Sequence record: MK931441.1
Direction: 5' to 3' (one strand)
Origin: Escherichia phage Snoke
Length of the DNA: 44,454 nucleotides
Shown: piece by piece, positions 3,349-44,226 of the stretch
Position numbering within the stretch: position 1 is the first letter of the stretch
How the letters are laid out: each line of letters begins with the position of its first letter
Notes under the pieces: model-generated
What the model was told of the DNA's origin: nothing
Databases searched by the model: none
Seen by the model: only the letters and a program-made list of their open reading frames with translations
Translations under genes and position numbers: made by a program

Positions 3349-3370
3349 AGCCCCGAAAGGGGCTTTCTTA
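3349..3370 (+). terminator. stem-loop / weak intrinsic terminator after portal gene
   Basis: AGCCCC-GAAA-GGGGCT hairpin followed by TTCTTA. Confidence 0.4.
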
Positions 3371-3374
3371 TAGT

Positions 3375-5728: not shown

Positions 5729-5730
5729 TA

Positions 5731-5760
5731 AAAGGCCCCATAATGGGGCCTTAGTTTTAT
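5731..5760. terminator. bidirectional intrinsic terminator
   Basis: AGGCCCCA-TAA-TGGGGCCT hairpin flanked by A-run upstream and T-run downstream, between convergent genes. Confidence 0.7.
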
Positions 5761-6278
5761 TTAAATCGCGCGGGCATTAACACCATAAAGGCCGTGTTTG
5801 AAAATTGTATTTTGCATCCTCTGGTTTGGTCCTGGAAATCGAAACGAGCAATTTCATTTTTGTATGCCTTAGAAATCTTGTACGCGTCTGCCAAATAGCG
5901 CAGAGTGAACCCTATACTACCGACAACACCCGGTGTGATGTGCGCCACGCGTCTCCAGTCAGGAAAGTTTCCTTCTACAACATCTACCGGAAGTGTACAT
6001 ATAAGCGCACGATTATCGTCATAGAAAGATACACTGCCGTTGTCGTGGTCTACCTCTGCGTAGTTAAATTTAGAAGGCTCTCTCCCTTTAATGTCGACGA
6101 GAACCCCTTTCTCAACGTTCGTCTTCACATTGTCGCAGAACAATCTATGACCGTCCGTAGACACTATCAATCCTTCAGGGTCTATGTAAAAAGCGTTCAA
6201 ATAGTAGCGAACATCATTTTTAGCCCTGCATATTTTCGCCCCTACATACGCAGGGAAAGTAATTACTGTAGTAACCAT
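5757..6278 (-). CDS. truncated DnaN-like protein (beta sliding clamp homolog, domain II plus partial domain III)
   Basis: 173 aa; DVRYYLNAF...STDGHRLFC, EGNFPDWRRV, IGFTLRYLADA and C-terminal FMVLMPARFK match, in order and spacing, E. coli DnaN motifs DVRYYLNG...ATDGHRLAVC, DGRFPDYRRV, IGFNVSYVLDVLNA and YVVMPMRL; strong SD AGGAGG 6 nt before ATG. Confidence 0.6.
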   Translation of the reverse strand: MVTTVITFPAYVGAKICRAKNDVRYYLNAFYIDPEGLIVSTDGHRLFCDNVKTNVEKGVLVDIKGREPSKFNYAEVDHDNGSVSFYDDNRALICTLPVDVVEGNFPDWRRVAHITPGVVGSIGFTLRYLADAYKISKAYKNEIARFDFQDQTRGCKIQFSNTAFMVLMPARFK

Positions 6279-6305
6279 TTTATGCCTCCTGTTTAAGTTA
6301 ACTGA

Positions 6306-6334
6306 ATAGTACCCTATTATATTGGTGCGCGCAA
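6306..6334 (-). promoter_or_regulatory. sigma70-type promoter (class II: TTGCGC-17-TACTAT) for DnaN-like gene
   Basis: Minus-strand TTGCGC, 17-bp spacer gcaccaatataataggg, TACTAT; spacer conserved with promoters at 15400, 37978, 38911. Confidence 0.55.
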
Positions 6335-6400
6335 ACTATTTGTTTACGTATTCCAGATATTCCACTCAATTGTAAACGTTGGAATAAACTATTCGAATAG

Positions 6401-6429
6401 TTGACTTTTCACTGAAAATATGCTAAGCT
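6401..6429 (+). promoter_or_regulatory. sigma70-type extended -10 promoter (class III: TTGACT-17-TGnTAAGCT), copy A
   Basis: TTGACT, 17-bp spacer ending TGC, TAAGCT; promoter plus about 45 nt of downstream leader nearly identical to 37681-37757. Confidence 0.55.
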
Positions 6430-6609
6430 CCACCTGAGCTTGTGAAGTATGAACAAGCGACCGCGGCGCGGGCAGGTAACGGAGCTGGACGTAAGTCCTG
6501 AGTGTAGTTACGCTGACGCGTTCGGAAGGGCCATACTCTATTGCTTGTGCAAAAAGTAACTGGTTTACTGAGATTACGCCGTTTCTATGTTTAAATGATA
6601 AGGACTAGC

Positions 6610-14000: not shown

Positions 14001-15127
14001 CCAAGCATCTCCGGTGAAATAGTTAAACGTGCGACCTCGCCATATTCGGCGCTATAAGTAATTACATTTGCACTACGACCTGACATCCATCCGCCGCGAG
14101 AGGCGTAGGCGTCTTTAGCCGCCAGGGTGCGGTGTTGCTCAACAACCATGTTACGGCTTTCTACAATCTTCTGATGGTGCAGGTGGCCTACATGGGCGTA
14201 GCTGTAAACACTCTCGCCGAACGCTTTGCGGAACTTGGCAATCATAACCGGTTCGATAGCGTCGAATCGTGCCTTATGCCCGTGGTGAAAGAACAGCGTC
14301 GTTTTGCCGTGTTGCACCATCTTGTAAACATCTGGCGACGTGTCGACGAACACCCGCGGCTCGTTGTCGTACAGCGTACTAAACATCTCAGCTAACCAAA
14401 TCATTCCGCTTTCGTCGTGGTTTCCTTGCACGATAAGCAAGCGAACATTTTTATGCTTAACCAGCGCCATACCGACAACACGGCGTACCATACGAATCAT
14501 GTAGCGGACCAGTTTCTGATAACGAGTGTCCGCATCAAGAACATGACCACTCGCTGGCGTAACCGCATCCAGACTATCGAAGTGCGCGAAGTCACCCAGC
14601 AGGTTAATAACCCCAGTTCCTGCATCTGGTGCTTTCTGAAACGCCGCATCGAACCATCGGGAGAACAGGTCTTCTGCAATCTTCATGTCCCAGTCGTCGC
14701 CGCTCTCGTCGGCCCAGGCCAGCATACCGAGATGGAAATCAGATACAGTGTAAAGATTAAGTAGTTTATCGTCACGTTTGGCGCGAACGGCTTTAACAGG
14801 CGCAACCGGCGTAATCTCTGACTTCATGCCCTCGATTACAGCTTTCATCAACTCGACCTGACGTTCAGCGTCAGTGTCTGTCTTAACCCATTGCAACTTA
14901 GTGTTGCCGAACTCGTCCACAAGCGACGACGTTCCTTTAATCTTGTAGCCGTCCGGGACAAGATGGCTAACGTCACGACCGTGACCTACGCCTTTCTTCG
15001 CCAGCTTCGCTTTACGGATACGAATAACTCGGTCTGAGATGCCGTATTTACGGGATATGTCGATAATCTTTGTTCCGGCGTTCAATTCTTCCTGTAACTG
15101 TTCGTCGGTTATTTTAATCCGGGCCAT
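13997..15127 (-). CDS. HTH domain + calcineurin-like metallophosphoesterase
   Basis: Phosphoesterase motifs in order: SDFHLG, GDFAHFD, GNHDE, HHGH, GHLHH; N-terminal HTH (ITDEQLQEELNAGTKIIDISRKYGISDRVIRIRKAK); SD GAGGAAG upstream. Confidence 0.7.
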   Translation of the reverse strand: MARIKITDEQLQEELNAGTKIIDISRKYGISDRVIRIRKAKLAKKGVGHGRDVSHLVPDGYKIKGTSSLVDEFGNTKLQWVKTDTDAERQVELMKAVIEGMKSEITPVAPVKAVRAKRDDKLLNLYTVSDFHLGMLAWADESGDDWDMKIAEDLFSRWFDAAFQKAPDAGTGVINLLGDFAHFDSLDAVTPASGHVLDADTRYQKLVRYMIRMVRRVVGMALVKHKNVRLLIVQGNHDESGMIWLAEMFSTLYDNEPRVFVDTSPDVYKMVQHGKTTLFFHHGHKARFDAIEPVMIAKFRKAFGESVYSYAHVGHLHHQKIVESRNMVVEQHRTLAAKDAYASRGGWMSGRSANVITYSAEYGEVARLTISPEMLG

Positions 15128-15166
15128 GCTTTACTTCCTCGTGTTTAGGATTTGTCCTATACTAGC

Positions 15167-15358
15167 TCACTTCTCTTTGACATTCGAGTTGCAAGCCCAG
15201 ATTAAAATAAATACCCACGGCAGCAGAACCCAGCCAAGAAACAGATTGGCCATGAATATCGCTAATTTCGCTTTATGACCCCGCATATGGGCCACTAAAA
15301 ACGGGATAAAATAAACTAAAACGATAATGATTAAGAAGAACATAGTAATACCTGTCAT
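15167..15358 (-). CDS. small membrane protein, superinfection-immunity-like
   Basis: 63 aa from internal ATG with SD AGGAG; two hydrophobic segments and motif AHMRGHKAKLAIFMANLFLGWVLLPWVFILIWA; ORF track start at 15496 would include the promoter. Confidence 0.5.
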   Translation of the reverse strand: MTGITMFFLIIIVLVYFIPFLVAHMRGHKAKLAIFMANLFLGWVLLPWVFILIWACNSNVKEK

Positions 15359-15399
15359 GGTGTAGCTCCTGTTCGAGTTAACATTGTTGGTGTAAGTGA

Positions 15400-15428
15400 A
15401 TAGTATCCTATTATGTTGGGGTGCGCAA
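15400..15428 (-). promoter_or_regulatory. sigma70-type promoter (class II) for minus-strand accessory island
   Basis: Minus-strand TTGCGC-17-TACTAT with spacer accccaacataatagga, identical to spacer at 37984-38000. Confidence 0.55.
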
Positions 15429-15536
15429 GTAATGTGATAGAATAATTTTGCGCCTAGTGTCGCACACGAAAAGCGGGTGGTTCCCGTCTGGCGCATTTAC
15501 CATTAACCTGTAACCTCTTAACCAAAGGATTAAAGA

Positions 15537-25893: not shown

Positions 25894-26027
25894 CTACTTT
25901 TCTAATAACTTCTCCAGTACAAACGCCAGTTGCGCATTGGCGGCGTCTCTCTGCTGCCGTAGTCGTAGAACCTCCTCTTCGAGTCCCTTGATACGTTTTT
26001 GCAATGCTGGAATCGGGGCTGTGATGT

Positions 26028-26213
26028 TCATTTCTTACCTTCGCTTTTCTTGAAACTGCGCTTTATGTCCGGCAGCGTGTAGCATCGTGACTTTTCGTAT
26101 TTACCGTCCGAGCTTACCAAAACAAAGCTGTTGCCGTCTTTCGATATGTACTCGATGGTGAAAGTATTGAATGAGTGTATGCTGTATATTTCATCGTCAA
26201 CATTAAGTTTCAT
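26028..26213 (-). CDS. hypothetical protein
   Basis: ORF from track at end of minus-strand operon. Confidence 0.3.
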   Translation of the reverse strand: MKLNVDDEIYSIHSFNTFTIEYISKDGNSFVLVSSDGKYEKSRCYTLPDIKRSFKKSEGKK

Positions 26214-27634
26214 TTCTTACCTCGTCTCTTCATGTAATTAAGCAACTCTTCCTGGACCGATTTCTTCTCGTCTGTACGCGCGGCAACAACCTCATCCAGC
26301 GTGTCTTTAGCAACGATGTGGTAGAGAAATACCGGTCGTTCGTGGCCCGCCTGTTTTTGTCGGACTGGACCTATACGCTCAACAACCTGCAAATAGTGCT
26401 CAAGGTTCCACCCTTGCGAAATAAACGCCAGATGATGGCCACCGTCCTGTAAATTGAGACCATGCCCGGCTGACGCAGGGTGCACGCATAGGATTTCGAT
26501 TTCACCACGGTTCCACGCTTCCATCTGCTTATTGCCATTCGCGCCTTTGGCGAACGCCTGTGCTTGCGGGAATCGCTTAAGGATGCGCTCCAGTTCGTGC
26601 TTGAACTGATAGGCTACCAGTAGCGTCGCACCCTGTAACTCCTCAACAATGGACTCAAGCGCATCCAGTTTCGTGTCGTGCACTTTCTCCCAGTCTTTGG
26701 TTGCTTCGCCGTCTGGACCAGACACATACACGGCACCGGAGGCGATCTGCAAACACTTTGACGTCTTTGCCGCGGCGTTAGCCGCTTCAACTTCTCCGCT
26801 CTCCAGTTCCGCGAATAGCTTCTCCTCCATATCTATGTACGCCTGACGCGCTTTCTTCGGCAGGTCAATTTCCACCGGCACGATAATCGGCGCTTCACAA
26901 CCGAACCACTCGGCGGCGTCAATCGTCAGGCTAATGTCTTTCATCTTCTGGTGAATTTCATTATCCGCACCAGGGCGTGCATGATACTCACGCGCCATAG
27001 CCGATTTGCCTTTCTGTACCGAGTTAAACCATCGGTCGGTGAATGCCGTGTATGAAGAACCGAGGCGCTCGCCCGCGTCGATAAACCAGTTCTGACCCCA
27101 CAAGTCTTTGAGGCCGTTCGGTGACGGCGTTCCCGTCAGGTTTATAAAACGCTTGACCTTACCGAACGCAACCTTGCTAAGCGCCTTTGCCCGCTTGCTG
27201 CCACCTGAACGACTGCGGAATGATTTCAGTTTCGTGCTCTCATCGGCAACGATAACCGTAAAAGGCCAGTCGTCTTTGCCGTAATAGTCAATAAGCCACT
27301 CGATAACTTCGTAGTTTGTACAGACCACATTAGCGTCTGACTCCAGTGCCGCGATGCGGCGCTTCTCTGAACCTGTCGCATCTACGACGCGCAGACACGG
27401 GAATCGCCATTTCTCTTGTTCTGATGGCCATGTGCCGGACGCAACACGCAGCGGGGCGAGGATTAACACGCGGTCGTCGTCCGTAAGCTGCCCGTTGCGG
27501 AACAGTCGGTTAAGCACCCACATCGTTGCGGAACTTTTGCCGGCGCCCATCGAAGCCCAAATATTACAGCGAGGATGCTGTAGCATGAACGAAGTCATGA
27601 GCTTCTGGTACTCGCGCCTTTGAAACTTACTCAT
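26210..27634 (-). CDS. superfamily 2 helicase (SNF2-like)
   Basis: Walker A GAGKSS, motif II VIVADEST, helicase C-terminal region with QGWNL...GPVRQKQ. Confidence 0.8.
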   Translation of the reverse strand: MSKFQRREYQKLMTSFMLQHPRCNIWASMGAGKSSATMWVLNRLFRNGQLTDDDRVLILAPLRVASGTWPSEQEKWRFPCLRVVDATGSEKRRIAALESDANVVCTNYEVIEWLIDYYGKDDWPFTVIVADESTKLKSFRSRSGGSKRAKALSKVAFGKVKRFINLTGTPSPNGLKDLWGQNWFIDAGERLGSSYTAFTDRWFNSVQKGKSAMAREYHARPGADNEIHQKMKDISLTIDAAEWFGCEAPIIVPVEIDLPKKARQAYIDMEEKLFAELESGEVEAANAAAKTSKCLQIASGAVYVSGPDGEATKDWEKVHDTKLDALESIVEELQGATLLVAYQFKHELERILKRFPQAQAFAKGANGNKQMEAWNRGEIEILCVHPASAGHGLNLQDGGHHLAFISQGWNLEHYLQVVERIGPVRQKQAGHERPVFLYHIVAKDTLDEVVAARTDEKKSVQEELLNYMKRRGKK

Positions 27635-27822
27635 TTTGCCACCAGCACCAGCTCTTTACGCCCGAACGCCGTAACGTTACCGGTTACATCTTCGATAACC
27701 AGTTTACCGTTAGACTCGACGAACACCGTATCAACGGCAACAGGGCGACGGGTCTTAACGTTGAAAATCATATCGCCTGGTACGATGTCACGTGCTGGTT
27801 TGCGGTCATATTCGTGTTTCAT
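27631..27822 (-). CDS. hypothetical protein
   Basis: ORF from track, ATGA-coupled to helicase. Confidence 0.3.
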   Translation of the reverse strand: MKHEYDRKPARDIVPGDMIFNVKTRRPVAVDTVFVESNGKLVIEDVTGNVTAFGRKELVLVAK

Positions 27823-27852
27823 TTCTCAATTCCTTATATTGTTGGTGTAGGG

Positions 27853-28152
27853 CTAACTATAATAGTTCGCTATTAGGTCGTCAACCTGTTTAAACGAACC
27901 AACGACAAAAACATTTGCACCACGTTTACGCATCCGCTCGTGCTCTCGTAGCTGGTGGGGGTCCGGCTTCGTGTTTTCATCTTTCTTAACCTCGACGAAC
28001 CAGATGACGCTGCCGGGGAGGATTACCAGCAGGTCAGGCGCTCCGTTTCTACCCTCATACACTATCTTACGAACGAGGCCGCCAAGGGCCTCGAATTGCT
28101 CTTTTGCGTATTTCTGAATCTTGCCTTCCGGAGTCATGAGCGCAAAACCCAT
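27853..28152 (-). CDS. VRR-NUC domain nuclease
   Basis: GAPDLLVILPGSVIWFVEVKK...Q motif pattern of VRR-NUC PD-(D/E)XK nucleases. Confidence 0.7.
   Translation of the reverse strand: MGFALMTPEGKIQKYAKEQFEALGGLVRKIVYEGRNGAPDLLVILPGSVIWFVEVKKDENTKPDPHQLREHERMRKRGANVFVVGSFKQVDDLIANYYS
27856..27884 (-). promoter_or_regulatory. sigma70 promoter (class I: TTGACG-17-TATAGT)
   Basis: Minus-strand TTGACG, 17-bp spacer acctaatagcgaactat, TATAGT; contains AATAG-N4-CTATT inverted repeat. Confidence 0.55.
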
Positions 28153-28286
28153 GCAAGGAAAGCCCCACCAACAACGGCAGCACCAACAAACTTAAAGAAC
28201 AGGTCATAATAGAACATCGAAGCTATTCCCGCACTGAGTAACAGTGCGAGCATGGTTACTATCGTCCAAAATACAAACATTGTCAT
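28134..28286 (-). CDS. small hydrophobic protein (hypothetical)
   Basis: 50-aa ORF below track threshold, predicted transmembrane. Confidence 0.25.
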   Translation of the reverse strand: MTMFVFWTIVTMLALLLSAGIASMFYYDLFFKFVGAAVVGGAFLAWVLRS

Positions 28287-28368
28287 AATACACACCCCTC
28301 ACGTTTCGTATGCTCAATTCCGCAGCGCGGACAGATTCGACAATCTTCTTCATATAACCGGTATATTT

Positions 28369-28500
28369 TCATTCCGGCACCCACAGATAAATTGCGATTA
28401 ACATACCCAATACGGCAACCATCATGCCGTACTGTCCCTCGTGACAGTAACCACCGGCGGCGAATCCAGCCAGTACCGCGATAATCAGTTTACTTAGCAT
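28369..28500 (-). CDS. small hydrophobic protein (hypothetical)
   Basis: 43-aa ORF below track threshold, predicted transmembrane, downstream of polymerase gene. Confidence 0.25.
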   Translation of the reverse strand: MLSKLIIAVLAGFAAGGYCHEGQYGMMVAVLGMLIAIYLWVPE

Positions 28501-30661
28501 AGCGCTTCATCTCCGCACCTTCTGCAACCAAAGGGAATCCCTCCGCCCAGTCAGGCAATTCACACATCAACCTCTCAAGCTCTGCAACATTGTATTCAGG
28601 CGAATCTGGCGTCTCGCAGATAATCTCATCGTGTACATGAAGCACAATCGGGTAGCCGTTTGCTTCAACTTTAAGTAGCGCGTTAGCCAGCAAATCACGG
28701 CACAACGCCTGCGTACAGTTTTCCACCAGTTTGCCTGAGTACGTGTACTGGAATCCCCACTGACGCGTTAACTGGTTCTCCCCCTGGTACTTGATGCGCA
28801 CGTTAGTAGAAACTTTTCCGTCTTCGTCTGTCTCTTTCGACACGCTTAAACCGACGCCAGGGTAGGACATAACACGTCCCGACGGCAACGTCATGCGCAA
28901 CCACCAACCCGCTACCTTGTTGCCGTTGTTGTCTGTTTCTACGTTGCGGGAAAACTTAACTCCGCGCGGGCCAGCGGAGAACTCTTTCCCCGGATTACGT
29001 ATAGCTGCCATAGCTGCGTCTTCAATATCGCGCCAGAATTGTACTATCGCCGGGTTGGCTTCCCGGTACATTCGTTTCAGAGCGTCACATGTACGCCAGA
29101 CTTTCTTATCAAGGATATATGATGGTCGGTCATCCTTTTCACCCGGACGCGGAGGACGTTTAGCTTCCTGAATACGTGCCCACTCGTAACCACGTGCCGT
29201 AGCGGCCCATATATGGTCAGGGAAAGTTCCAGCTAAAATGTTAGTCATGTCGTTCAAATCAAGCCCTAAGTTTTTAGCAAACGTGACGAAAGCGCCCACA
29301 CCCCCCGCGTAGCCCAGTCCGAGAACCATTGCTTTGGCTATTTGTCTTTGGTCTTTTGTTACGTCGTCATAACTAACATTGAACACGGTTGATGCGAGTT
29401 TCTTGTACACATCAACTCCGTTTACAAATACTTCTATTAAATCGTCTTCACCCGCCAGCCAGGCCAGCCCACGACCTTCAACGTTAGAGTAATCGGCAAC
29501 AACAAACTTGTGTCCGGCTTCCGGGATGATGCAGCTACGCACCGTCGATGCCGTCAGCTTGGCGACATCAAAGCGGCGATGTGCACGTCCTTTCAGTAGC
29601 GCAGAAATACCTTTATCCAGTTCATCGTCATGATAGTACCCGCGGGCCAGGTTCTGTGGCTGGAAGCCTTTGCCAGCGAATCGTAGCGTACGCTTAGCCC
29701 CGCCGTACTGGATACAACCACGGCGGCGGTCGTCTGACGAGCGGCCTAGCAACAGCGGGTTATATTTCGTTGACGCAGTTGACGCGGCCCCGAGGCGCAT
29801 TTCGATAATCATGCGTGCATCGTCGGGTAAATCCTCGTCAGCCAGCAGGTCGTTAAGAGTAGACTTCTGTGCGTTATGGATGCGATGCGCAGGGGCCAGT
29901 TCACGCAGAATCGGCAGGAAGTCTTTACCGGTAAGCGAGCCGCCGTATTTGCGCTGGGCTTCTTCCTGCAACTGCGCCTTGTGCTTCTCTACGGCTTCAA
30001 TCGCTGCTTCCGCCAGCGCAACATCAACCTTGAACCCACGGTCATTGATTAACTGGTCCAGTTCCAGTACACGGTCTTCGAACTCAGAGTTACCCCACCG
30101 CGGCAGCTTATGGAAGACTTCACGCATCGCGGTGATGTCGCTCACGGCGTACTTGATGAACAGCGCCCACTCGTCCAGGTGCGTTTCGGCGGTGTAGCGG
30201 CGGATTTTGTAGTTCTTCGGCGTAGGTTTAGAGAAACGCTGAATCAGCGCCTTGCCGCGTTTATCTTTCGCGTTGTCTGCCGATACACCCAGCACTTCGC
30301 ACAACGCATCAAGTGAACCCGGCAGCGCGTGGCGAAACGCCCAAATCATCGTATCAATGGTGTTGCTTACAGGAATATCAAAACCCCAGCAGTGTTTCAT
30401 GATGAGCCTGTCGAACATTGAGCCGTTGTGCCACACCATCTTGATACGGCTGTTCGGCTTAACCAGGCGGCGTAAGGCGCGGTGCAAATCCCCCGGCATG
30501 TCGCTGCCGTCGGTGCAATCCCATACCTGCACAGGCTCGTCATCAAAAGCATAGGTACAGATTAGCACTTCGGTAGTTGGATGTTCGGCGTAAGAGTAAG
30601 AACCGACTTTCTTTAAATCGGCCTCGGAGAATGTTTCAAAGTCCAGGTATAAGTAGCTCAT
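28490..30661 (-). CDS. DNA polymerase, family A (Pol I-like) with 3'-5' exonuclease domain
   Basis: Exo motif LDFETFS; polymerase motif A DYSNVEGR, motif B RQIAKAMVLGLGYAGG, motif C HVHDEI; start taken at ATG with SD AAGGA (track start 30715). Confidence 0.9.
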   Translation of the reverse strand: MSYLYLDFETFSEADLKKVGSYSYAEHPTTEVLICTYAFDDEPVQVWDCTDGSDMPGDLHRALRRLVKPNSRIKMVWHNGSMFDRLIMKHCWGFDIPVSNTIDTMIWAFRHALPGSLDALCEVLGVSADNAKDKRGKALIQRFSKPTPKNYKIRRYTAETHLDEWALFIKYAVSDITAMREVFHKLPRWGNSEFEDRVLELDQLINDRGFKVDVALAEAAIEAVEKHKAQLQEEAQRKYGGSLTGKDFLPILRELAPAHRIHNAQKSTLNDLLADEDLPDDARMIIEMRLGAASTASTKYNPLLLGRSSDDRRRGCIQYGGAKRTLRFAGKGFQPQNLARGYYHDDELDKGISALLKGRAHRRFDVAKLTASTVRSCIIPEAGHKFVVADYSNVEGRGLAWLAGEDDLIEVFVNGVDVYKKLASTVFNVSYDDVTKDQRQIAKAMVLGLGYAGGVGAFVTFAKNLGLDLNDMTNILAGTFPDHIWAATARGYEWARIQEAKRPPRPGEKDDRPSYILDKKVWRTCDALKRMYREANPAIVQFWRDIEDAAMAAIRNPGKEFSAGPRGVKFSRNVETDNNGNKVAGWWLRMTLPSGRVMSYPGVGLSVSKETDEDGKVSTNVRIKYQGENQLTRQWGFQYTYSGKLVENCTQALCRDLLANALLKVEANGYPIVLHVHDEIICETPDSPEYNVAELERLMCELPDWAEGFPLVAEGAEMKRYAK

Positions 30662-30828
30662 TTCTTTTTCCTTAAATCCAGTGCCTTCGTTTCGCTTAAT
30701 CTTATTTTCATACAATCACAGCAAATCCACACATGCCTGTACCCGGCCCGGTACTCATCTGCATACCACGGAAGCGGTTTCATATAGCGATAAACGTGCT
30801 TACAGAAAAACATTATTTTCGACCCTTA

Positions 30829-30853
30829 GTAAAAAGGCCCAATGAAGGGCCTT
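30829..30853 (-). terminator. intrinsic terminator/attenuator on minus strand
   Basis: Hairpin AGGCCC-N6-GGGCCT followed by T-run on minus strand, between DUF2815-like gene and polymerase. Confidence 0.5.
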
Positions 30854-30872
30854 AGTTAAATTGATTCAGATA

Positions 30873-31499
30873 TTAGCGGCGACGACGTTCGCGGCGCGGT
30901 GCTTCATCTTCTTCGTCGTCTTCCAGGTCAGTAACACTTGCAGAGACTTTAGAACCGCCAAACGCTTTACCTTCGCCGGCGTATTTAATCGCCAGCAGGT
31001 TAACGCCGAGGACTTTATATTTCTGGCTGAACCAGATTTCAACGCTTACGTTAGCGACGCAGCCGCTGTAAACCTGTTCACCTTCAATCTGTTCGCCTTC
31101 GACGTTGAAGTCAGGCTCTACCTGAGTTTCACCTTTTTTAGAGGTTACAATCAGAGGTTGTTTCTGTGCCTTCGCTTTGAAGTAGAAGCCTTCCGGGAAG
31201 TCTTCAAAAGGATTATCACGCTCGGCGATGTCCTTAATAGCACATTTATCCATGTGCTTGCCTTCGCCGTAGTTTGACTTCATCCACTTCTCGGCAGCAG
31301 CGGCCCCCAGTGCTTCCTCTACAACCGCATAAACAGTGTCGTACATTTCGTCGATTTGCGCATGGTCAGACGGCAGAATGATAGTCGCGCTGTACTGACC
31401 TTTAGTGATAGAGCCATCGTCGTTTTCACGGTCTTTTTCGCGTTCGAATACGTTAACCCATGCAGTGTTTACTTTACGCAGATTTAATTTCAGTCCCAT
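30873..31499 (-). CDS. DUF2815-like protein, possible ssDNA-binding protein
   Basis: 208 aa with acidic C-terminal tail DLEDDEEDEA; paired with Cas4-like nuclease gene as in known phage replication modules. Confidence 0.45.
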   Translation of the reverse strand: MGLKLNLRKVNTAWVNVFEREKDRENDDGSITKGQYSATIILPSDHAQIDEMYDTVYAVVEEALGAAAAEKWMKSNYGEGKHMDKCAIKDIAERDNPFEDFPEGFYFKAKAQKQPLIVTSKKGETQVEPDFNVEGEQIEGEQVYSGCVANVSVEIWFSQKYKVLGVNLLAIKYAGEGKAFGGSKVSASVTDLEDDEEDEAPRRERRRR

Positions 31500-31557
31500 T
31501 TGATTTCTCGCTTTTAAGTTTCGTTTACTCCGGGAAGCTGCCCGGCCAGTGATTAGA

Positions 31558-31586
31558 ACTATAATAGCTAACTATTCAGGTGTCAA
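31558..31586 (-). promoter_or_regulatory. sigma70 promoter (class I: TTGACA-17-TATAGT)
   Basis: Minus-strand TTGACA, spacer cctgaatagttagctat, TATAGT; contains AATAG-N4-CTATT. Confidence 0.6.
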
Positions 31587-31590
31587 CACT

Positions 31591-32835
31591 TTATTCTAAA
31601 TCTTCTTCACTAACCTGATTCCACTCAGGCCGTTTGTCGTCTGCCGTTGCTACACATGGTGCACCTGGCTTACGTGTGATGAAGTCTTTCAGTTCTTCTT
31701 CCGGTATAACTTTAACCGCTTCGGTCGGCGTCATGAGAACGACTTTGTTCAGCATAGTGCCGTATTTCTCAGCCACCTTATCAGCGTCTTTCCACGCACG
31801 ATTACCCGGACGACCCTCGACCAGCTTGTAACCCGGCACTTTCTTGCCAGAATGCAACGCGGCAGCCATAGCTTTCTCAACCTTGTCGATGTGCTGGCGC
31901 AACAACGGCAGCTTCTCATACTCGGCGACGAGTTGCTCGGGTGTCAGTTCCAGCGCAAAGTCGTCCTCCAGTTCTTCCACCAGTACAGAATTAACAGTCT
32001 TCGTCCTGGCGACGCACTGTTCCGAGAACCGGCACCACTGGCAACCATCGACTGACGGCTTAAAGTCGGACGCTTTCAGGTTCTTCTTACCACGGAAGTA
32101 CGCATCGAGTGCTAACAGCGCGCGTTTATGTGCGAACTTAGCGAACAGTTCCAGGCCTTCAACCGAGATATCCCACTCCGACGCACCGCCAGCATACGGC
32201 TGGAAGATGACCAGACGAACAGTTGTTATGTTATATCGTCTCTTTAGTCGGCGATAAACACCGAGAGCGTAAAGCATAAGCTGCTTGTTTTCTTTCGCTT
32301 CGACACGATGCCGTCCGGTTTTCAGGTCACCAATAATGAGCATGTGCTCGTCGGTGTTCGCCAGTTCCTGCACGGCAACAAGGTCAGCGGTCCCGAACGT
32401 CTCAACGCCTTCATATCCCGGATGCAGCACCTCTGTAAGATTGACGCGCATTTCCAGCTTGGCGTAAGTCGCTACGTCGATAATCGGTTTGCAGTAGTCG
32501 GTGTACTTACGCACCTGCTCAATCATGTCCGCCGTAATAAGTACCGCACCTTTCATAGGGCTGATTAACGCCTTAATCTGGCCTTTGCCTTCATCCAGCA
32601 CGTAAGCCCCGACTTCACGCTCTAACGGCAACGCAGTGCCTTTGATGTACTGGTTAAGGTGAATCTCAGCTATGGTGTGCATGGCTGTGCCCAATACGGC
32701 GGCTTTACCTGACGTATTTGGAATGTCTTTTTCACATGCCAGTGATGCACTGCACGTCAGCCACTTCTTAGCGCCTGACGGCGACAACAGGGCGTGCACA
32801 TCGTTATTGCCGCCGCGTTCTTTTAGTTTCATCAT
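31591..32835 (-). CDS. PD-(D/E)XK exonuclease, Cas4/RecB-like (DUF2800-like)
   Basis: D-x-K motif IGDLKTG, Cys cluster CQWCRFSEQC at C-terminus plus N-terminal Cys. Confidence 0.75.
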   Translation of the reverse strand: MMKLKERGGNNDVHALLSPSGAKKWLTCSASLACEKDIPNTSGKAAVLGTAMHTIAEIHLNQYIKGTALPLEREVGAYVLDEGKGQIKALISPMKGAVLITADMIEQVRKYTDYCKPIIDVATYAKLEMRVNLTEVLHPGYEGVETFGTADLVAVQELANTDEHMLIIGDLKTGRHRVEAKENKQLMLYALGVYRRLKRRYNITTVRLVIFQPYAGGASEWDISVEGLELFAKFAHKRALLALDAYFRGKKNLKASDFKPSVDGCQWCRFSEQCVARTKTVNSVLVEELEDDFALELTPEQLVAEYEKLPLLRQHIDKVEKAMAAALHSGKKVPGYKLVEGRPGNRAWKDADKVAEKYGTMLNKVVLMTPTEAVKVIPEEELKDFITRKPGAPCVATADDKRPEWNQVSEEDLE

Positions 32836-33089
32836 TTGGACTCCACCGGTAACTCAGGTAAATACATCCAGTGTGTTATACCCATCTCTATATACCGTTT
32901 CGTGTATAACTGTTTTCCGTTTTCATCCAGACCGGCGGTGATATCGTCGAAGTAATCCTGGATGTGAACAAAATCAATTCCACCTTCAGGGAAGCCGTTG
33001 TCATCATATTTACTTCCGTCTACGGAGCAAACCAAAACAGCATCATCTTTTGATTCCGGTAACGCATCATTTACGCTAACCCAATTCAT
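32832..33089 (-). CDS. DUF551-like phage protein
   Basis: N-terminal WVSVNDALPE and C-terminal THWMYLPELP resemble DUF551 signature. Confidence 0.45.
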   Translation of the reverse strand: MNWVSVNDALPESKDDAVLVCSVDGSKYDDNGFPEGGIDFVHIQDYFDDITAGLDENGKQLYTKRYIEMGITHWMYLPELPVESK

Positions 33090-33358
33090 ACCCTAACCTC
33101 CCACTGGTCGATTAAATGTCGTGTCTTATGGTCGCAGTGCATAGCCCATCCATACATCGACTCGAAGACATAAAAGTCACTTTTAACAAAAGTCGTGCGC
33201 TTAATCTGCGACATGTGACAGCCTATATCTTTAGGCCGTGGTACTTTGCCTAAGTACGCCATCTCTTCCATCTTGTGTGCGCCGGACGGAGCGCGCAACA
33301 GCCATAGCGCCTCTGCGTTATCCCGCCGGTCAACGGCGCGGTAGAGTTGGTAAATCAT
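33086..33358 (-). CDS. hypothetical protein
   Basis: ORF from track. Confidence 0.3.
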   Translation of the reverse strand: MIYQLYRAVDRRDNAEALWLLRAPSGAHKMEEMAYLGKVPRPKDIGCHMSQIKRTTFVKSDFYVFESMYGWAMHCDHKTRHLIDQWEVRV

Positions 33359-33401
33359 AATTACGACCCTCAGTTAAAGCGGCCCGAAGGCCGCGAGATA
33401 G

Positions 33402-33899
33402 TTATTCTTCTTCGAAATACTTGTTCTTGATTGCCGTCAGGCGTTCCAGGTATTCGGCCAGGTCTTCGTCTTTAATCGCGGCAATCTTCATCTTCTTGCC
33501 GGTGAACTCTTCTAGCAGTTCATCCGAATCATCGCACGCGGCATCGCTCGGGCCTTCGTTAATTGCATCGTCGATAGCCTGAATCTGGTCGCGCAGAGAC
33601 TGGTAATCGACTTCTTCCTTCTCTTCCGTCTCTGGCGTCGATTCCTCTACTTTAGCTTTACGCGGCTTACGTTTCGGCTTCTCTTCTTCCGCCGGTTTAG
33701 TGTCAACCAGGTCTTCACCTTCGACCGGGATTTCTTTTGTTTCTTCTTTAATACTTTCAGAGAACTGCTCAATTTTATGCGCGGCTACTGCGGCGGCCTC
33801 TTTGGCAGTAGTTGGCGCGAACTGTTTTGCACTGTTCGCAGCAATCAGTTCATGGGCAACTACGAAACGCTCCAGTAATTTCAGAAATTGTTCTAACAT
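33402..33899 (-). CDS. hypothetical acidic protein
   Basis: E/K/D-rich 165-aa protein with SD AGGAGAG. Confidence 0.35.
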   Translation of the reverse strand: MLEQFLKLLERFVVAHELIAANSAKQFAPTTAKEAAAVAAHKIEQFSESIKEETKEIPVEGEDLVDTKPAEEEKPKRKPRKAKVEESTPETEEKEEVDYQSLRDQIQAIDDAINEGPSDAACDDSDELLEEFTGKKMKIAAIKDEDLAEYLERLTAIKNKYFEEE

Positions 33900-33914
33900 T
33901 TGTTTCTCTCCTGT

Positions 33915-34064
33915 TTATTTATACTTAACGGTTTTGACTAACTGGCCTGTTGCTTTGTCGAAGAAGCCAACACGATTGTTGCTTACGCTATATCGTGCGG
34001 TTTCTTTAGTTACAAATGCGATATCAAGGCCTAACAGAATCTTTGCTTTGCGGTTGTTAACCAT
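33915..34064 (-). CDS. small protein (hypothetical)
   Basis: 49-aa ORF below track threshold with strong SD GAGGAG, first gene after early promoter. Confidence 0.3.
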   Translation of the reverse strand: MVNNRKAKILLGLDIAFVTKETARYSVSNNRVGFFDKATGQLVKTVKYK

Positions 34065-34094
34065 TGTGTCTCTCCTCTCGTTTGGTATGGGCTA

Positions 34095-34123
34095 ACTATA
34101 ATAGCGAACTATTCACTTGTCAA
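34095..34123 (-). promoter_or_regulatory. sigma70 promoter (class I: TTGACA-17-TATAGT) with embedded inverted repeat
   Basis: Minus-strand TTGACA, spacer agtgaatagttcgctat, TATAGT; AATAG-CGAA-CTATT at 34100-34113. Confidence 0.6.
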
Positions 34124-34187
34124 TGGGCTTTTCTAAAATAATTAATATGGTACTATTCACGCATCAACTAACTAAGGAGTAACTGAC

Positions 34188-34403
34188 ATGCAACCATCTG
34201 AACTAGGCATCCGTGTAGAACAACGCCGTAAAGAACTCGGCATCTCCCAGCGCCGTCTGGCTGTCCTGACTGGCGTTTCCCAGGGCGCGATTAACCAACT
34301 GGCACTTGGGGTAACTCAGGACGTCCGCCCGGCGACGCTGTTTAAACTGGCGGAAGTGCTGGAGGTAGACGCCAAGTGGCTGGCGTTAGGTGAAGGGGCT
34401 TAA
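34188..34403 (+). CDS. XRE-family HTH transcriptional regulator (Cro/CI-like)
   Basis: QRRKELGISQRRLAVLTGVSQGAINQLALG helix-turn-helix; SD AAGGAG; divergent from early promoter. Confidence 0.8.
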   Translation: MQPSELGIRVEQRRKELGISQRRLAVLTGVSQGAINQLALGVTQDVRPATLFKLAEVLEVDAKWLALGEGA

Positions 34404-34434
34404 TGCCCCTTTCTTTTTATAGCAACTTATCGAG

Positions 34435-34731
34435 CTATTCCAAATTCTTAATCGTGTGTTGCACGTTCAGGTACTGAATCCACGCAAAAAGCCATACGCT
34501 TAACGGAAAACTAACCACAGCTGCCGTTCTGAAAACAATGTGGACGGTACACGCTACAATTTCCTTTACCGTCATATCCAGAACGTGGCGCAATTCTGCA
34601 ACTTCCTCTAACGCTAGCTTGCAAGCAGGCCACCATTGGTGTGCTACACAAGAAACACATGTCAGGTACGACGGGCGGTATCCAGCCCTCACTGCTTTAA
34701 ACGGGTTATCTATAAAATCGTAGATATTCAT
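34435..34731 (-). CDS. hypothetical protein
   Basis: ORF from track; Cys-rich N-terminus, hydrophobic C-terminus. Confidence 0.3.
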   Translation of the reverse strand: MNIYDFIDNPFKAVRAGYRPSYLTCVSCVAHQWWPACKLALEEVAELRHVLDMTVKEIVACTVHIVFRTAAVVSFPLSVWLFAWIQYLNVQHTIKNLE

Positions 34732-36989
34732 TCCAAATCCTCTTCTGTCACTATCAGCATCTCATTCGGCTCGTATATTGTCTTCGGAATCTTGTTATCG
34801 TTTATGCCCCACGGCAGCCGATATTGCTTAGGTATAGGCCTGTTGTTATTATCCAGCCCAGAGACGATAACCCCAGCCTCGTGCATCTCCTCCAGTTTCT
34901 TTCGAAGGTCGTTATTAGCGTTAATCGGTACACCATAACTATCTTCTTTCGCCGCTTTGACGATAGCGGACATAGAAAACCCTCGCTTGTCGTCGCCCTG
35001 CTCCTGCAATTTACCTAATGCGTAAATAACCGTAGCTTCTTTGGTACCCAGTTTCTCGAACTGGCCTACCTTTTCTTTAACGGCTTCCTTCTGTTCGTCG
35101 GTCATACCTTCTACTTTCTTCACGAAGACAGAGAAGGCGTTAAAGTTAACAAAGACATCGATGTGCGGATTTCCCGCGTCAAAATCTCGCACATCGTCAC
35201 TGCTATACCCTTCCGGAAGCACCATGAAGTTGTGAGTTGGTTCTTTCTTTTCCGGTGGCTCCGCTATCTGAATCTTCTGTATTACGAATCCTCTGGCTTT
35301 CTGCCGTTCTCCGTTTCGGTTCTTTATGTGATACAGGTTTATCTCTAAGTTATTGTCGTTGTCTGGTTTATGCAGGAACATCCCGTTATCGATGGAGTTG
35401 TGAAAGTCGCTCCCACCCTTCGGCATCATGCCGTTTTCAGACGGTACGGTTTCGTCGATGTTTTTAGTCGGGTGCACCATAGCGCCTACCGCAGCGTTAA
35501 GCGTCGACGCTATTTCGTTAAGCGCCTGCGCCGCTTCTTTCATCGACCTGTTGTCGTTCTCGTCGAAGCCTGGTATGCAAGTTTGTAGGGTATCAAACGT
35601 AACCTTTACAATTTTCTCTTCACCGGCGACACGGCGCATCATTCTTACCGCCTGGCGGCGCCATGCTTCATCAAGTAAATTACACCCATCGGCAACACAA
35701 TCGATAATGTGCAAGCGGTCCAGGCTATCCCCGAGGGCAATCTGCAAAGACTTTTTATGTCGCCCGAACGACTGTGCGCCTTCACCGGCGAAAATGAACG
35801 CATGTCCTTCTGCAACCTCTGCCCCACCGAACGCATATCTTTTTTCGGCGGCAATAGCGGCGTCAATCGCCATACTAAATGTCGACTTACCAGTGTGGGA
35901 CTTTGCGCAAATGTAAAACGATTCGTTAGTCTGCATAAGGCCGTCTACGACGGAGTAAGCAGGTTCTTTTTCAACTTCCGGCTCGTCTTCGAGGTCTTCC
36001 AGAGTGCAAGTTACAGGCTCTTCATTCTCTGTGCGGTGTAATTCCTCAATCTCTTCGTCCGGTAAATCAGGCAGAGCCGCACGAATGCTGTTAATACTGA
36101 TAGGTTGCTTGTCTACGTTAAGCTCGTCCGGAAGACCGCACATACGCAGAGCCAAATGTTGTCGGCGGTTAAGCTCGGTGCAAGCGCCGTTGTTTGTGTG
36201 CTGGCACACGAAGCGCACTTCTTTACCATCAAGCATAATGCTGGTAGAGCCTTTGCCGGTGTGCAGGTGTTCGTTAGGGCAAGGCACTTCGTACCCGCGA
36301 CCGGAAGATAAAGCGTCAAGGCCAAGCTCCGCTTCGCAGAAATGCGCTATATCCGCGTTAAGCCCATGCTCATCGGCAGCAAGGGTCTTAGCTTCACGTT
36401 TACGCAACCCCATTTCTTCGGCTTTCTTGATGTACCGCTCGGCACGGATAACACGCCCTTCTGTAACCGTTATCTTCGACTCTTTATGCGGCAGGTAGAT
36501 AAGGCGGTTGCCATCTTCTGTGCAGTGGTCACGCAGCGCTTCGTCTATCTCTAACTCTGCACAAATGGCGCGTTGTACCATCCACGCATCGTTAGAGTTA
36601 AACGGCGTGCGTGCAGGTACAAGAACGCGAAAGGCGTAATCCCCGTTTTTACACGCGTGCTGATGCGACGCCGTTGTGTGCAGAATGTTGAAGAACGGCG
36701 CGTTCTTGAATTTGCGCGTCAGGTCGCGGTACTGAGCGCGGTTGAGATGGTCAAAGTCGAACTTAACCACACTGTCTTCCAGAATCGCGTTCTTACGGCG
36801 ACCGCCAACCGGCGCAATAGCTTTCTGCTTAATCTTGGCCGCGTCGTACTCTTCCTTAGTCCATGACGGGTCTACGGACAGACGCTTCGATGTATCGCAG
36901 ACATACTCTACAAACTGCTCCAGTGGCATTTCACGGGCTACCGGGTTTTTATCGAATGTGTTACGCAGCGTTGCAAAAACAATATTCAT
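34728..36989 (-). CDS. DNA primase / helicase (putative)
   Basis: Central P-loop AKSHTGKST; N-terminal region with Cys/His cluster CPNEHLHTGKGSTS...CQHTNNGAC; position in replication module. Confidence 0.6.
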   Translation of the reverse strand: MNIVFATLRNTFDKNPVAREMPLEQFVEYVCDTSKRLSVDPSWTKEEYDAAKIKQKAIAPVGGRRKNAILEDSVVKFDFDHLNRAQYRDLTRKFKNAPFFNILHTTASHQHACKNGDYAFRVLVPARTPFNSNDAWMVQRAICAELEIDEALRDHCTEDGNRLIYLPHKESKITVTEGRVIRAERYIKKAEEMGLRKREAKTLAADEHGLNADIAHFCEAELGLDALSSGRGYEVPCPNEHLHTGKGSTSIMLDGKEVRFVCQHTNNGACTELNRRQHLALRMCGLPDELNVDKQPISINSIRAALPDLPDEEIEELHRTENEEPVTCTLEDLEDEPEVEKEPAYSVVDGLMQTNESFYICAKSHTGKSTFSMAIDAAIAAEKRYAFGGAEVAEGHAFIFAGEGAQSFGRHKKSLQIALGDSLDRLHIIDCVADGCNLLDEAWRRQAVRMMRRVAGEEKIVKVTFDTLQTCIPGFDENDNRSMKEAAQALNEIASTLNAAVGAMVHPTKNIDETVPSENGMMPKGGSDFHNSIDNGMFLHKPDNDNNLEINLYHIKNRNGERQKARGFVIQKIQIAEPPEKKEPTHNFMVLPEGYSSDDVRDFDAGNPHIDVFVNFNAFSVFVKKVEGMTDEQKEAVKEKVGQFEKLGTKEATVIYALGKLQEQGDDKRGFSMSAIVKAAKEDSYGVPINANNDLRKKLEEMHEAGVIVSGLDNNNRPIPKQYRLPWGINDNKIPKTIYEPNEMLIVTEEDLE

Positions 36990-37181
36990 TTCTTTTTCTC
37001 CGCACGTTCTAAGGCTTCCAGCATACGGCGCATTGCGCGTTCATCTTTACCGGTGCGAAGAAGTCTGCGCCGTGTTTCTGGCGGCGTAGCTGTGGAACTA
37101 TTAATTTCGCCATTGTATAATCCTTGTGCTTACTTTGATGATTTGTGCTTCGGCCCCGACGTCCTAGCGTTGGGGTTTCTT

Positions 37182-37394
37182 TTATTTATCGCCTGCAAAC
37201 CACGCGTGCGCAGAATCATAGAAACGACATTTACTTAATACCTCGATTGGCATCTTAATAATGCGCGTCGGTTCCGACAAATGATTAGGCTTACATATTT
37301 CTGCATAGAATCCGCTGTCAGTAATTTCTGACGCAAACTTAAACCAGTATTTAACTTTACCGTCTTCAAAGTAACAACCCATACGCCCAATCAT
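37182..37394 (-). CDS. hypothetical protein
   Basis: ORF from track. Confidence 0.3.
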   Translation of the reverse strand: MIGRMGCYFEDGKVKYWFKFASEITDSGFYAEICKPNHLSEPTRIIKMPIEVLSKCRFYDSAHAWFAGDK

Positions 37395-37573
37395 TTCACG
37401 TTCTCCTTAATCCATGCTTCAACTTTATTACGGTCAAATGTACCCGGTAAACGGCGGCCCATTACTTTAATACAGCAGTCAGGGAATTTACCACTGCGCA
37501 GCCAGTTATTAATTGTCTGACGTGTCACACCGATACGTTCTGCTACTTCATTCTGGGTCATGTAATGTTGCAT
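37391..37573 (-). CDS. HTH DNA-binding protein (AlpA/excisionase-like fold, putative regulator)
   Basis: MTQNEVAERIGVTRQTINNWLRSGKFP helix-turn-helix; internal ATG with SD AGGAG 8 nt upstream. Confidence 0.55.
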   Translation of the reverse strand: MQHYMTQNEVAERIGVTRQTINNWLRSGKFPDCCIKVMGRRLPGTFDRNKVEAWIKENVK

Positions 37574-37604
37574 TTTTATATCTCCTGTTTGTTTGGTGAA
37601 GCTG

Positions 37605-37633
37605 AGTATAGGATAGCGGGAATGTAAAAGCAA
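37605..37633 (-). promoter_or_regulatory. sigma70 promoter (TTGCTT-17-TATACT) for HTH regulator gene
   Basis: Minus-strand -35/-10 with 17-bp spacer. Confidence 0.45.
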
Positions 37634-37680
37634 CCAAAACGCCACACAAAGTTACTAAGATACAAAAGATGCTACAGGTA

Positions 37681-37709
37681 TTGACTTTTACTAAGAAATA
37701 TGGTAAGCT
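37681..37709 (+). promoter_or_regulatory. sigma70-type extended -10 promoter (class III), copy B
   Basis: TTGACT-17-TGgTAAGCT; promoter and following leader to about 37757 nearly identical to 6401-6476. Confidence 0.55.
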
Positions 37710-37977
37710 CAGCCTGAGCTTGTGAAGTATGAACAAGCGACCGCGGCGCGCGGCAGGCGAAACGAGCACGTGTAGCGTGTGGAGTGAGGCTCGCTAGCGC
37801 GTTTGGGAGGCCCCAAGTCTATTGTAATTCCAGCCTAAGTAGCTAAGTTACTGATTTGCCGTAGGTTAGAACCGCCAGCTCACTCACTCACTCTTGGTGC
37901 CTTCGGCACCACGTTCGTTTCGTTTCGCTCGCTACCCCCTTAAACGAAAGAATCACAACGGCAACGTAACTAATCTC

Positions 37978-38006
37978 TTGCACACCCCAACATAATAGGA
38001 TACTAT
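37978..38006 (+). promoter_or_regulatory. sigma70-type promoter (class II: TTGCAC-17-TACTAT)
   Basis: Spacer accccaacataatagga; AATAG-GATA-CTATT at 37994-38007. Confidence 0.55.
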
Positions 38007-38040
38007 TCACTTATCGAAACGAGACAGAGGAGTGAGGGCT

Positions 38041-38910: not shown

Positions 38911-38939
38911 TTGCACGCTGGGGAAGAATAGGATACTAT
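38911..38939 (+). promoter_or_regulatory. sigma70-type promoter (class II: TTGCAC-17-TACTAT)
   Basis: Spacer gctggggaagaatagga; AATAG-GATA-CTATT at 38927-38940. Confidence 0.55.
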
Positions 38940-38970
38940 TCATTTACACAAACGAGAGGAGAGGCAGAAT

Positions 38971-42790: not shown

Positions 42791-42809
42791 TATTTTCTGT
42801 AATGACTAG

Positions 42810-42838
42810 TTGACTATTATTCTGACACCAATTATATT
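42810..42838 (+). promoter_or_regulatory. sigma70 promoter (TTGACT-17-TATATT)
   Basis: -35, 17-bp spacer and -10 directly after terminator. Confidence 0.5.
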
Positions 42839-43822: not shown

Positions 43823-43993
43823 ATGTTCGATAATATTGACGCAGCAATCGAAGAAGCAATCTGGCGTCGCTACAACGGTGAGCAACAACGGCACTTCTGC
43901 CTGGTGCAGCGCGGTAACATGATTGCCGTAGTGCAGGACCGCGATAATAAATACCCAAATGCAATGTGGACGACGAGGAATTTCTTAGGATGA
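43823..43993 (+). CDS. hypothetical small protein
   Basis: 56-aa ORF below track threshold. Confidence 0.25.
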   Translation: MFDNIDAAIEEAIWRRYNGEQQRHFCLVQRGNMIAVVQDRDNKYPNAMWTTRNFLG

Positions 43994-44226
43994 TTACCAG
44001 CATTCCGAACCTGATTAAAGAATACGGCACGATGGCGGAGACATGCCGACAAACCGGCATCAATGAAATGACGATTCGCAAGTACAGCAAAGACGTAGAC
44101 TGCGAGCGCCATGTAATTTATAACAACCGCCTGATGACGCACGTCAGGACAAGCCCGGTGTTATTCACACGCCGTGGTATCACGAAGACTGAGCAACGTA
44201 TCGCACGAGAGGAGGGTGATGTATGA
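43990..44226 (+). CDS. HTH-containing protein (hypothetical)
   Basis: IKEYGTMAETCRQTGINEMTIRKYSKD helix-turn-helix-like segment; ATGA-coupled. Confidence 0.35.
   Translation: MITSIPNLIKEYGTMAETCRQTGINEMTIRKYSKDVDCERHVIYNNRLMTHVRTSPVLFTRRGITKTEQRIAREEGDV

Follow-up and report, generated by a model that had tools for sequence, protein, structure and literature searches.

A 14-bp dyad in the non-structural promoters of Escherichia phage Snoke, most likely the operator of a Cro-like protein

The promoter at 34,095–34,123 in the genome of Escherichia phage Snoke (MK931441.1) holds in its spacer an inverted repeat, AATAG-N4-CTATT, that recurs in other promoters of the same phage. Its presence there raises the question of whether the repeat is part of the promoter or the site of a separate regulator, and if the latter, of which one. 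The window analysed here, 44,454 bp, is the whole genome of this virulent siphovirus (Kagunavirus, Guernseyvirinae). Exact matches to AATAGNNNNCTATT were found in the whole window at the seven positions where the first-pass annotation had placed them (Table 1), with 0.01 expected. None of 100 dinucleotide shuffles reached seven matches, and order-2 Markov simulations gave no copies. AATAG and CTATT are paired seven times at a spacing of 4, against 0–1 times at every other spacing from 0 to 12. Among inverted repeats with arms of 5 or 6 bp, AATAG-N4-CTATT is the commonest in the window, and in an unbiased self-comparison the dyad is the top repeated 18-mer, above the repeated terminators. A motif search of the genome and its relatives had been proposed with the original observation; it gives a frequency far above expectation, and the dyad is present in the relatives as well. 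An Rfam scan of the window gave no match. The sites exist, are non-random, and lie within promoter cores.

The gene map of the window was taken from the annotation of Escherichia phage Schulenburg, a near-identical genome (98% identity to the window over the 12 kb compared, 26000–38000); many other E. coli phages are 89–93% identical to the window over the same interval. Packaging, head, tail and lysis genes lie on the plus strand, replication and recombination operons on the minus strand between 26 and 37.6 kb, and small early genes on the plus strand from 38 kb. A gene for an XRE-type protein at 34188, labelled 'Cro' in the Schulenburg annotation, stands alone on the plus strand. No integrase, cI or second XRE gene was found in the Schulenburg annotation or in Pfam scans of small ORFs, and the lack of a cI partner, integrase or lysogeny module indicates that the phage is virulent. 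An RNA polymerase gene is likewise absent from the Schulenburg annotation, and the large ORFs of the window all match structural or replication genes by position.

All seven perfect dyads sit within sigma70-type promoters of non-structural genes. The genes served are small early genes, those for SSB and polymerase, helicase and a clamp-like protein, an exonuclease operon, and an immunity/phosphoesterase operon. A consensus scan and direct reading confirmed that there are two promoter classes, one with the dyad in the spacer and one with the dyad shifted by 6 bp over the −10 element, as first described. The three class I promoters (TTGACA/TTGACG-17-TATAGT, all on the minus strand) are the three best sigma70 consensus matches in the 26–44 kb region (11/12, 11/12 and 10/12 positions); here the dyad lies within the spacer, and its final T doubles as the opening base of the −10. 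In the four class II promoters (TTGC[AG]C-17-TACTAT, assigned by direct reading) the dyad is placed 6 bp further downstream than in class I, so that its right arm overlaps the −10. In both classes the hexamers and their spacing are of the sigma70 type, and an RBS and start codon follow 25–45 bp downstream. The dyad is the sole sequence that the two classes have in common. The four class II promoters, nearly identical along about 36 bp, are clearly paralogous, and their mutual similarity is therefore partly a matter of ancestry. In class I the extended motif TGAATAG..CTATTAT points in the direction of transcription, and in class II it points against it. Bidirectional transcription as a general property of the class II sites was considered and rejected: just one weak reverse match (9/12, 15378–15406) was found, and no −35 was seen by eye elsewhere.

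Table 1. Dyads, promoter and candidate DNA-binding proteins in the window
Feature	Position	Strand	Remarks
Perfect dyad AATAGCGAACTATT	34100..34113	.	In the spacer of P34100, class I; arms invariant in 36 Kagunavirus loci, N4 variable
Class I promoter TTGACA-17-TATAGT (34123-34095)	34095..34123	-	11/12 consensus; leftward replication/recombination operon (33915-34064, 33402-33899, exonuclease, others; Schulenburg genes)
Perfect dyad	31563..31576	.	Class I promoter 31586-31558(-), upstream of SSB and DNA polymerase genes
Perfect dyad	27861..27874	.	Class I promoter 27884-27856(-), TTGACG-17-TATAGT, upstream of helicase operon
Perfect dyad	37994..38007	.	Class II promoter 37978-38006(+), TTGCAC(37978-37983)-17-TACTAT(38001-38006); small early genes from 38032
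Perfect dyad	38927..38940	.	Class II promoter 38911-38939(+), TTGCAC(38911-38916)-17-TACTAT(38934-38939); early genes from 38971
Perfect dyad	6305..6318	.	Class II promoter 6334-6306(-), -35 rc 6329-6334, -10 rc 6306-6311; clamp-like gene 5757-6278
Perfect dyad	15399..15412	.	Class II promoter 15428-15400(-), -35 rc 15423-15428, -10 rc 15400-15405; superinfection-immunity and phosphoesterase operon
Imperfect dyad AATATGGTACTATT	34144..34157	.	One mismatch; over extended -10 promoter (TGgTACTAT, 34148-34156) of the XRE gene
Imperfect dyad ACTAGTTGACTATT	42805..42818	.	One mismatch; centred on -35 of TTGACT-17-TATATT (42810-42838,+)
Possible weak site AATAGTTGACTTTT	6396..6409	.	Over -35 of TTGACT(6401-6406)-17-TAAGCT(6424-6429)(+); membership uncertain
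XRE/HTH_3 protein, 71 aa, 434-Cro-like	34188..34403	+	Own promoter, own terminator (34392-34412), stand-alone unit
HTH_17 excisionase-like protein, 60 aa	37391..37573	-	First gene of primase operon; Pfam HTH_17; PHROG 66
NinH-like protein	43966-44226		Just under Pfam gathering cutoff

Two features of the transcripts from these promoters were also seen. The superinfection-immunity coding sequence of Schulenburg (15057–15386 in that genome, 15167–15496 on the minus strand of the window) is over-extended, with the promoter and dyad falling inside it; the annotations of EC3-1 and SE2, together with the promoter position, indicate a product of 63 aa starting from about 15358. Between dyad promoters and start codons there is a 5′-UTR box, AAACGAGA(N2-3)GAGGAG, which includes the Shine–Dalgarno sequence (34066–34082 on the minus strand, 38017–38032 and 38949–38963) and is common to SE2 and PSDA-2, that is, across genera.

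The first-pass annotation missed two conserved imperfect copies of the dyad, one in the XRE promoter at 34144 and one at 42805 on the −35 of the 42810 promoter. The single mismatch in AATATGGTACTATT creates the TG of the extended −10 of the XRE gene. The arms of this site are invariant in 36 loci, one of which differs at an N4 base. At 42805, where the adjoining spacer is hypervariable, ACTAG is invariant and 23 of 25 loci have CTATT intact; the analogous place is occupied in SE2 by AATAG-TTGA-CTAGT, in which the arms are swapped, and in PSDA-2 by AATAT-TTGA-CTAAT. A further one-mismatch dyad, TATAGTATGCTATT, lies at 3369–3382 directly after a terminator, with the ATG of a head-morphogenesis gene in its N4, and is also found in EC3-1 (34361). 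It may represent a weak site, or coding constraint alone may have preserved it.

Several other recurrent elements were noted in the window. Positions 6396–6500 and 37681–37790 of the window are twin elements of ~100 bp (72% identity over about 200 bp), each with a strong promoter, TTGACT-N14-TGn-TAAGCT, whose −10 is at 6424–6429 and 37704–37709 respectively. The near-identical leader CCTGAGCTTGTGAAGTATGAACAAGCGACCGCGGCGCGCGGCAGG that follows the promoter opens a tiny ORF (MNKRPRR...). The 37681 copy is kept in 19 related loci, and Rfam gave no match; the twin elements may encode a leader peptide or a non-coding RNA ahead of the capsid/spanin operon and the early operon. Extended −10 (TGn) promoters that lack a good −35 or a perfect dyad were found at 34148–34156, 6421–6429, 37701–37709 and 15435–15443. 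Besides the XRE gene and the twin elements they probably also serve the tail operon (TGaTAGAAT), and these promoters may be a temporal class of their own. Operon boundaries at 5730, 13390, 25868 and 30834 (and 9067) are marked by repeated bidirectional terminator hairpins of nearly the same sequence, AAAAGGCCCC-N4-GGGGCCTTTT, which have equivalents in SE2.

To follow the dyad among relatives, we collected loci around XRE homologues (34 Kagunavirus-like, 11 Jerseyvirus-like and 4 PSDA-2-like) together with four complete genomes. Per-column nucleotide diversity was calculated for six orthologous sites in about 30 Kagunavirus genomes. Diversity was 0.008 in the two arms, against 0.18 in the central N4, 0.19 in the remaining spacer and 0.115 in the flanks (Mann–Whitney p about 1e-9 for arms versus other regions). 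The arms are constrained to the same degree as the −35 and −10 hexamers. For the right arm, which adjoins or overlaps the −10, some of this constraint comes from the promoter itself; the left arm plays no part in sigma70 recognition and by itself gave 0.0096. The spacers had originally been described as far more conserved than sigma70 recognition would require, and this holds true of the arms. Individual promoters behave in the same way. Among relatives the gap between the −35 and the dyad of P34100 shifts by 1 bp, giving a spacer of 17 or 18 bp, with the arms fixed; at 38927 the upstream spacer is highly variable and the arms near-invariant, with the variant CCATT in 2 of 28 loci. Strong purifying selection thus acts on the arms, and does so independently of the −35 and −10. 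On these comparisons the dyad behaves like an element selected in its own right rather than like a part of sigma70 recognition.

The dyad is also present outside the genus. In Jerseyvirus (SE2 and relatives) AATAG/CTATT occurs at orthologous promoters and is the top repeated element in SE2. At the SE2 immunity-gene promoter, the orthologue of the 15399 site, it adopts a third register, TTGCAT-N7-dyad, in which it overlaps TATTAT. SE2 12336–12349 reads AGTAG-AGTA-CTACT, and 5 of 7 aligned Jerseyvirus loci have AATAG-AGTA-CTATT there, a symmetric change in both arms. The PSDA-2-like clade carries a relaxed 5-4-5 dyad at the same promoter positions, with 8 copies of AWTAB-N4-VTAWT, a pattern derived post hoc, against 1.2 expected; this dyad is degenerate and is not the top repeat of the genome. 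Among PSDA-2-like relatives (two to four alignable, at two sites) the arms are largely kept, and the N4 and adjacent spacer vary. The core common to all three clades is AWTA-N6-TAWT. Altogether four registers were seen, with the right arm ending at −12, −9 or −6, or with the dyad centred on the −35, and orthologous promoters switch register between genera with the dyad retained. A search of viral contigs for TGAATAGN4CTATTAT revealed no new family among the matches listed: there were single chance matches, and the multi-copy contigs were all Kagunavirus-sized.

As a sequence the motif is already published, a listing that the first-pass annotation overlooked. The fBC-Eco01 paper reports seven 'phage RNAP promoters' predicted by PHIRE, with the consensus tgAATAGTa-ccTATTat-T, and PP1–PP7 of its Supplementary Table S2 are the same sequences at orthologous positions; the Golestan paper gives the number alone of its PHIRE promoters, again seven. 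Neither paper mentions that the motif is a dyad, that sigma70 hexamers surround it, that it occurs in two registers, or that it might have a regulator, and our literature search found no functional study of the dyad-bearing promoters. The one RNA-seq study of a relative that was found, a temporal study of Kagunavirus K1B4, assigns time classes at the level of genes, without TSS resolution. As the genome has no phage RNA polymerase gene, the label 'phage RNAP promoter' is a misattribution.

If the dyad is the site of a protein, the phage itself offers a short list of candidates. A Pfam scan of 32 proteins (the two HTH candidates and 30 other, mostly small, ORFs) gave three recognisable DNA binders (Table 1). 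Both regulators proposed at the outset are among them, XRE as a 434-Cro-like HTH_3 protein and the second as HTH_17. Dimers of 434 Cro and 434 repressor bind 14-bp operators in which the outer bases are conserved and the centre is variable and uncontacted. The anatomy of the Snoke dyad, 5+4+5 = 14 bp with conserved arms and a variable N4, matches this type of operator. XRE scores 47.2 bits against HTH_3 (cutoff 23), and in phmmer searches of the PDB its residues 6–68 align full-length with 434 Cro (1zug, E=7.9e-6) and with 434 repressor (1.5e-5). Both the Gln with which the 434 proteins read A1 and the A at arm position 1 are conserved in all three clades. The XRE gene is flanked by the sites at 34100 and 34144 in a divergent promoter region, a layout repeated in all three clades, and XRE is present in every clade with the dyad. 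Among Kagunavirus loci, helix 3 of XRE differs in one alone, by a G-to-S variant, and across the genus the arms are almost unchanged too. Comparison between clades tells against XRE. The putative DNA-facing residues are Q,G,N,Q in Kagunavirus against Q,S,T,H in Jerseyvirus, and both genera use AATAG/CTATT; Jerseyvirus and PSDA-2 XRE have similar putative DNA-facing residues and differ in site stringency. The earlier proposal of a common operator for a dimeric phage regulator gains indirect support from the separate selection of the dyad and its retention in four registers across genera, but the comparative data do not cleanly single out the binder. On balance we favour XRE, with about an even chance of being the binder, and consider HTH_17 an unlikely one; the remaining probability falls to some other protein of phage or host, or to a function intrinsic to the promoter.

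The case for the 60-aa HTH_17 protein, an excisionase/MerR-like winged-helix protein, includes its distribution. In 442 phage records it was confined to Kagunavirus and Jerseyvirus, which are also the genera whose motif is strict; a tblastn search of the PSDA-2-like clade, with its degenerate motif, gave no match. It is also 82% identical between Kagunavirus and Jerseyvirus, against 48% for XRE. In the K1B4 RNA-seq the sole gene annotated as 'early' encodes an HTH domain, and gene order suggests that it corresponds to HTH_17. However, the recognition-helix alleles TRQTINNW, TRRTLNNW and STMTLNRW coexist in Kagunavirus with the motif unchanged (EC3-1 has 8 perfect sites), and the PSDA-2 clade has 5-4-5 dyads at the same promoter positions though it lacks HTH_17. 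No sites adjoin the HTH_17 gene, whose own promoter, TTGCTT-17-TATACT, is without a dyad. Matches of HTH_17 to the PDB are weak, and its fold class does not favour a dyad: excisionase-like HTH_17 proteins are typically monomers on direct or asymmetric repeats. Separately, we noted that at least three divergent alleles of the HTH_17 gene are shuffled among Kagunavirus genomes, one of them nearer to the Jerseyvirus version, which points to mosaic exchange of a small regulator.

A separate factor might not be needed if the dyad were the shared consensus of duplicated phage promoters, kept for the binding of host RNA polymerase or for spacer geometry. The motif is listed in this way in the genome papers, the class II promoters are near-identical, and their right arm overlaps the −10. 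But the four registers relative to the −35 and −10 leave no common RNA polymerase contact, and classes I and II share the dyad alone. The left arm is invariant without a known sigma70 contact, while neighbouring spacer bases and spacer length vary; the symmetry and the unique 4-bp spacing also go unexplained. Four registers, together with dyad symmetry at one fixed spacing, cannot be accounted for by contacts with one part of RNA polymerase, and are what would be expected of an independent DNA-binding dimer. We therefore regard a pure promoter consensus as improbable.

A conserved DNA-binding protein of the host, E. coli or Salmonella, whose site the phage exploits, would explain why E. coli Kagunavirus and Salmonella Jerseyvirus have an identical consensus though both HTH candidates differ in their recognition helices. 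The core TAG-N4-CTA recalls the half-site geometry of SlyA and TrpR. Nevertheless, we know of no enterobacterial regulator whose consensus convincingly fits AATAG-N4-CTATT (TrpR, SlyA, ArgR, Fur, OxyR and NrdR were considered), the PSDA-2-like phages relax the motif in the same host genus, Salmonella, and multi-copy occurrences, among the matches listed, are all on Kagunavirus-sized viral contigs. A host protein accordingly seems a rather remote prospect. Finally, a promoter for a phage-encoded RNA polymerase, as in the fBC-Eco01 label, or a DNA or RNA hairpin or cruciform, as the pairing of the arms might allow, has next to no probability, because no RNA polymerase gene exists in the near-identical genome and the motif occurs in both orientations relative to downstream genes, while the hairpins are weak (−1.5 to −3.7 kcal/mol), would form ahead of the predicted TSS, and lose their pairing in the Jerseyvirus variant AATGG..CGATT.

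The explanation that we prefer is that the dyad is the operator of a dimeric phage HTH protein, most likely XRE, which would repress the sigma70 promoters of non-structural genes; judged from sequence comparison, this reading as a whole is about as probable as all others together. Binding of protein at the dyad, XRE as the binder, and repression as the effect are the three steps that we infer. As XRE accumulated it would fill the perfect sites and block RNA polymerase, and the early and replication promoters would be turned down. At its own extended −10 promoter, where the site is weaker, XRE would act as a negative autoregulator, and the likewise weaker site over the −35 at 42810 would bring that promoter under milder control. 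A gradation of affinity, with perfect sites on the early and replication promoters and one-mismatch sites on the XRE and 42810 promoters, is plausible. Since the dyad in each register covers part of the −35, the spacer or the −10, a bound protein would be expected to occlude RNA polymerase and hence to repress both promoter classes. The first-pass annotation had suggested that different positioning gives different regulatory outcomes, and this is not supported, since each register overlaps the core promoter and repression is predicted in all of them. Activation from the spacer in the manner of MerR was also rejected, as it needs a spacer of 19–20 bp, whereas the length here is 17 bp, and in some relatives 18 bp. 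More tentatively, and with a good deal less confidence, the scheme may extend to the Guernseyvirinae as a whole: their temporal programme could consist of host RNA polymerase and a single orphan Cro-like protein reading one 14-bp dyad in four registers at ~10 promoters, with graded site quality, from perfect sites at early and replication promoters to single-mismatch sites at the XRE promoter and at a promoter of the late region, ordering the shut-off.

Kagunavirus and Jerseyvirus are among the commonest isolated therapeutic candidates for E. coli and Salmonella. If the dyad is indeed the operator of the Cro-like protein, it would provide a simple and testable model for the shut-off of early and replication genes in a virulent phage, the annotation of these genomes would be corrected, and a compact orthogonal repressor/operator pair with a set of graded promoters would become available for phage engineering. 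General concepts of gene regulation would be unchanged even then.

The closest published counterparts of the Snoke sites are the PHIRE promoters of fBC-Eco01, which are the same sequences at orthologous positions but were read as promoters for a phage RNA polymerase. Among characterised systems the nearest is 434 Cro/cI. XRE is a full-length homologue of 434 Cro and, like Cro, has 71 aa; the dyad, too, measures 14 bp and is conserved in its outer bases but variable in the middle; and the sites overlap the −35 or −10 of early promoters, with the regulator gene beside two of them between divergent promoters. Unlike 434, Snoke has no cI partner, integrase or lysogeny module, its sites are scattered over at least 8–10 promoters rather than gathered in two clustered tripartite operators, and the arm, to which binding is putative, is AATAG in place of the ACAA of 434 OR/OL (ACAA-N6-TTGT). 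The turn-down of early genes by Cro resembles the picture proposed for Snoke, except that Snoke is without cI. The controller (C) proteins of restriction-modification systems are small XRE-type dimers that act on short palindromes over the promoter core and exert dose-dependent control, including autoregulation. The candidate arrangement in Snoke likewise combines a small XRE-type dimer with a short palindrome over the promoter core; C-boxes, however, are paired, lie upstream of the C gene alone and are linked to restriction-modification, whereas Snoke has many dispersed single sites in a phage. The stoperators of cluster A mycobacteriophages are asymmetric 13–14-bp sites, mostly outside promoters, that block elongation in lysogens in an orientation-dependent manner. 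They share with the Snoke dyad the repetition of one short repressor site many times across a phage genome, but the Snoke sites are symmetric, confined to promoter cores, and belong to a virulent phage. The Snoke dyad is real, strongly selected and previously mislabelled, and the system is of a familiar kind: most likely a Cro-like repressor has the dyad as its operator and through it controls the promoters of the non-structural genes.
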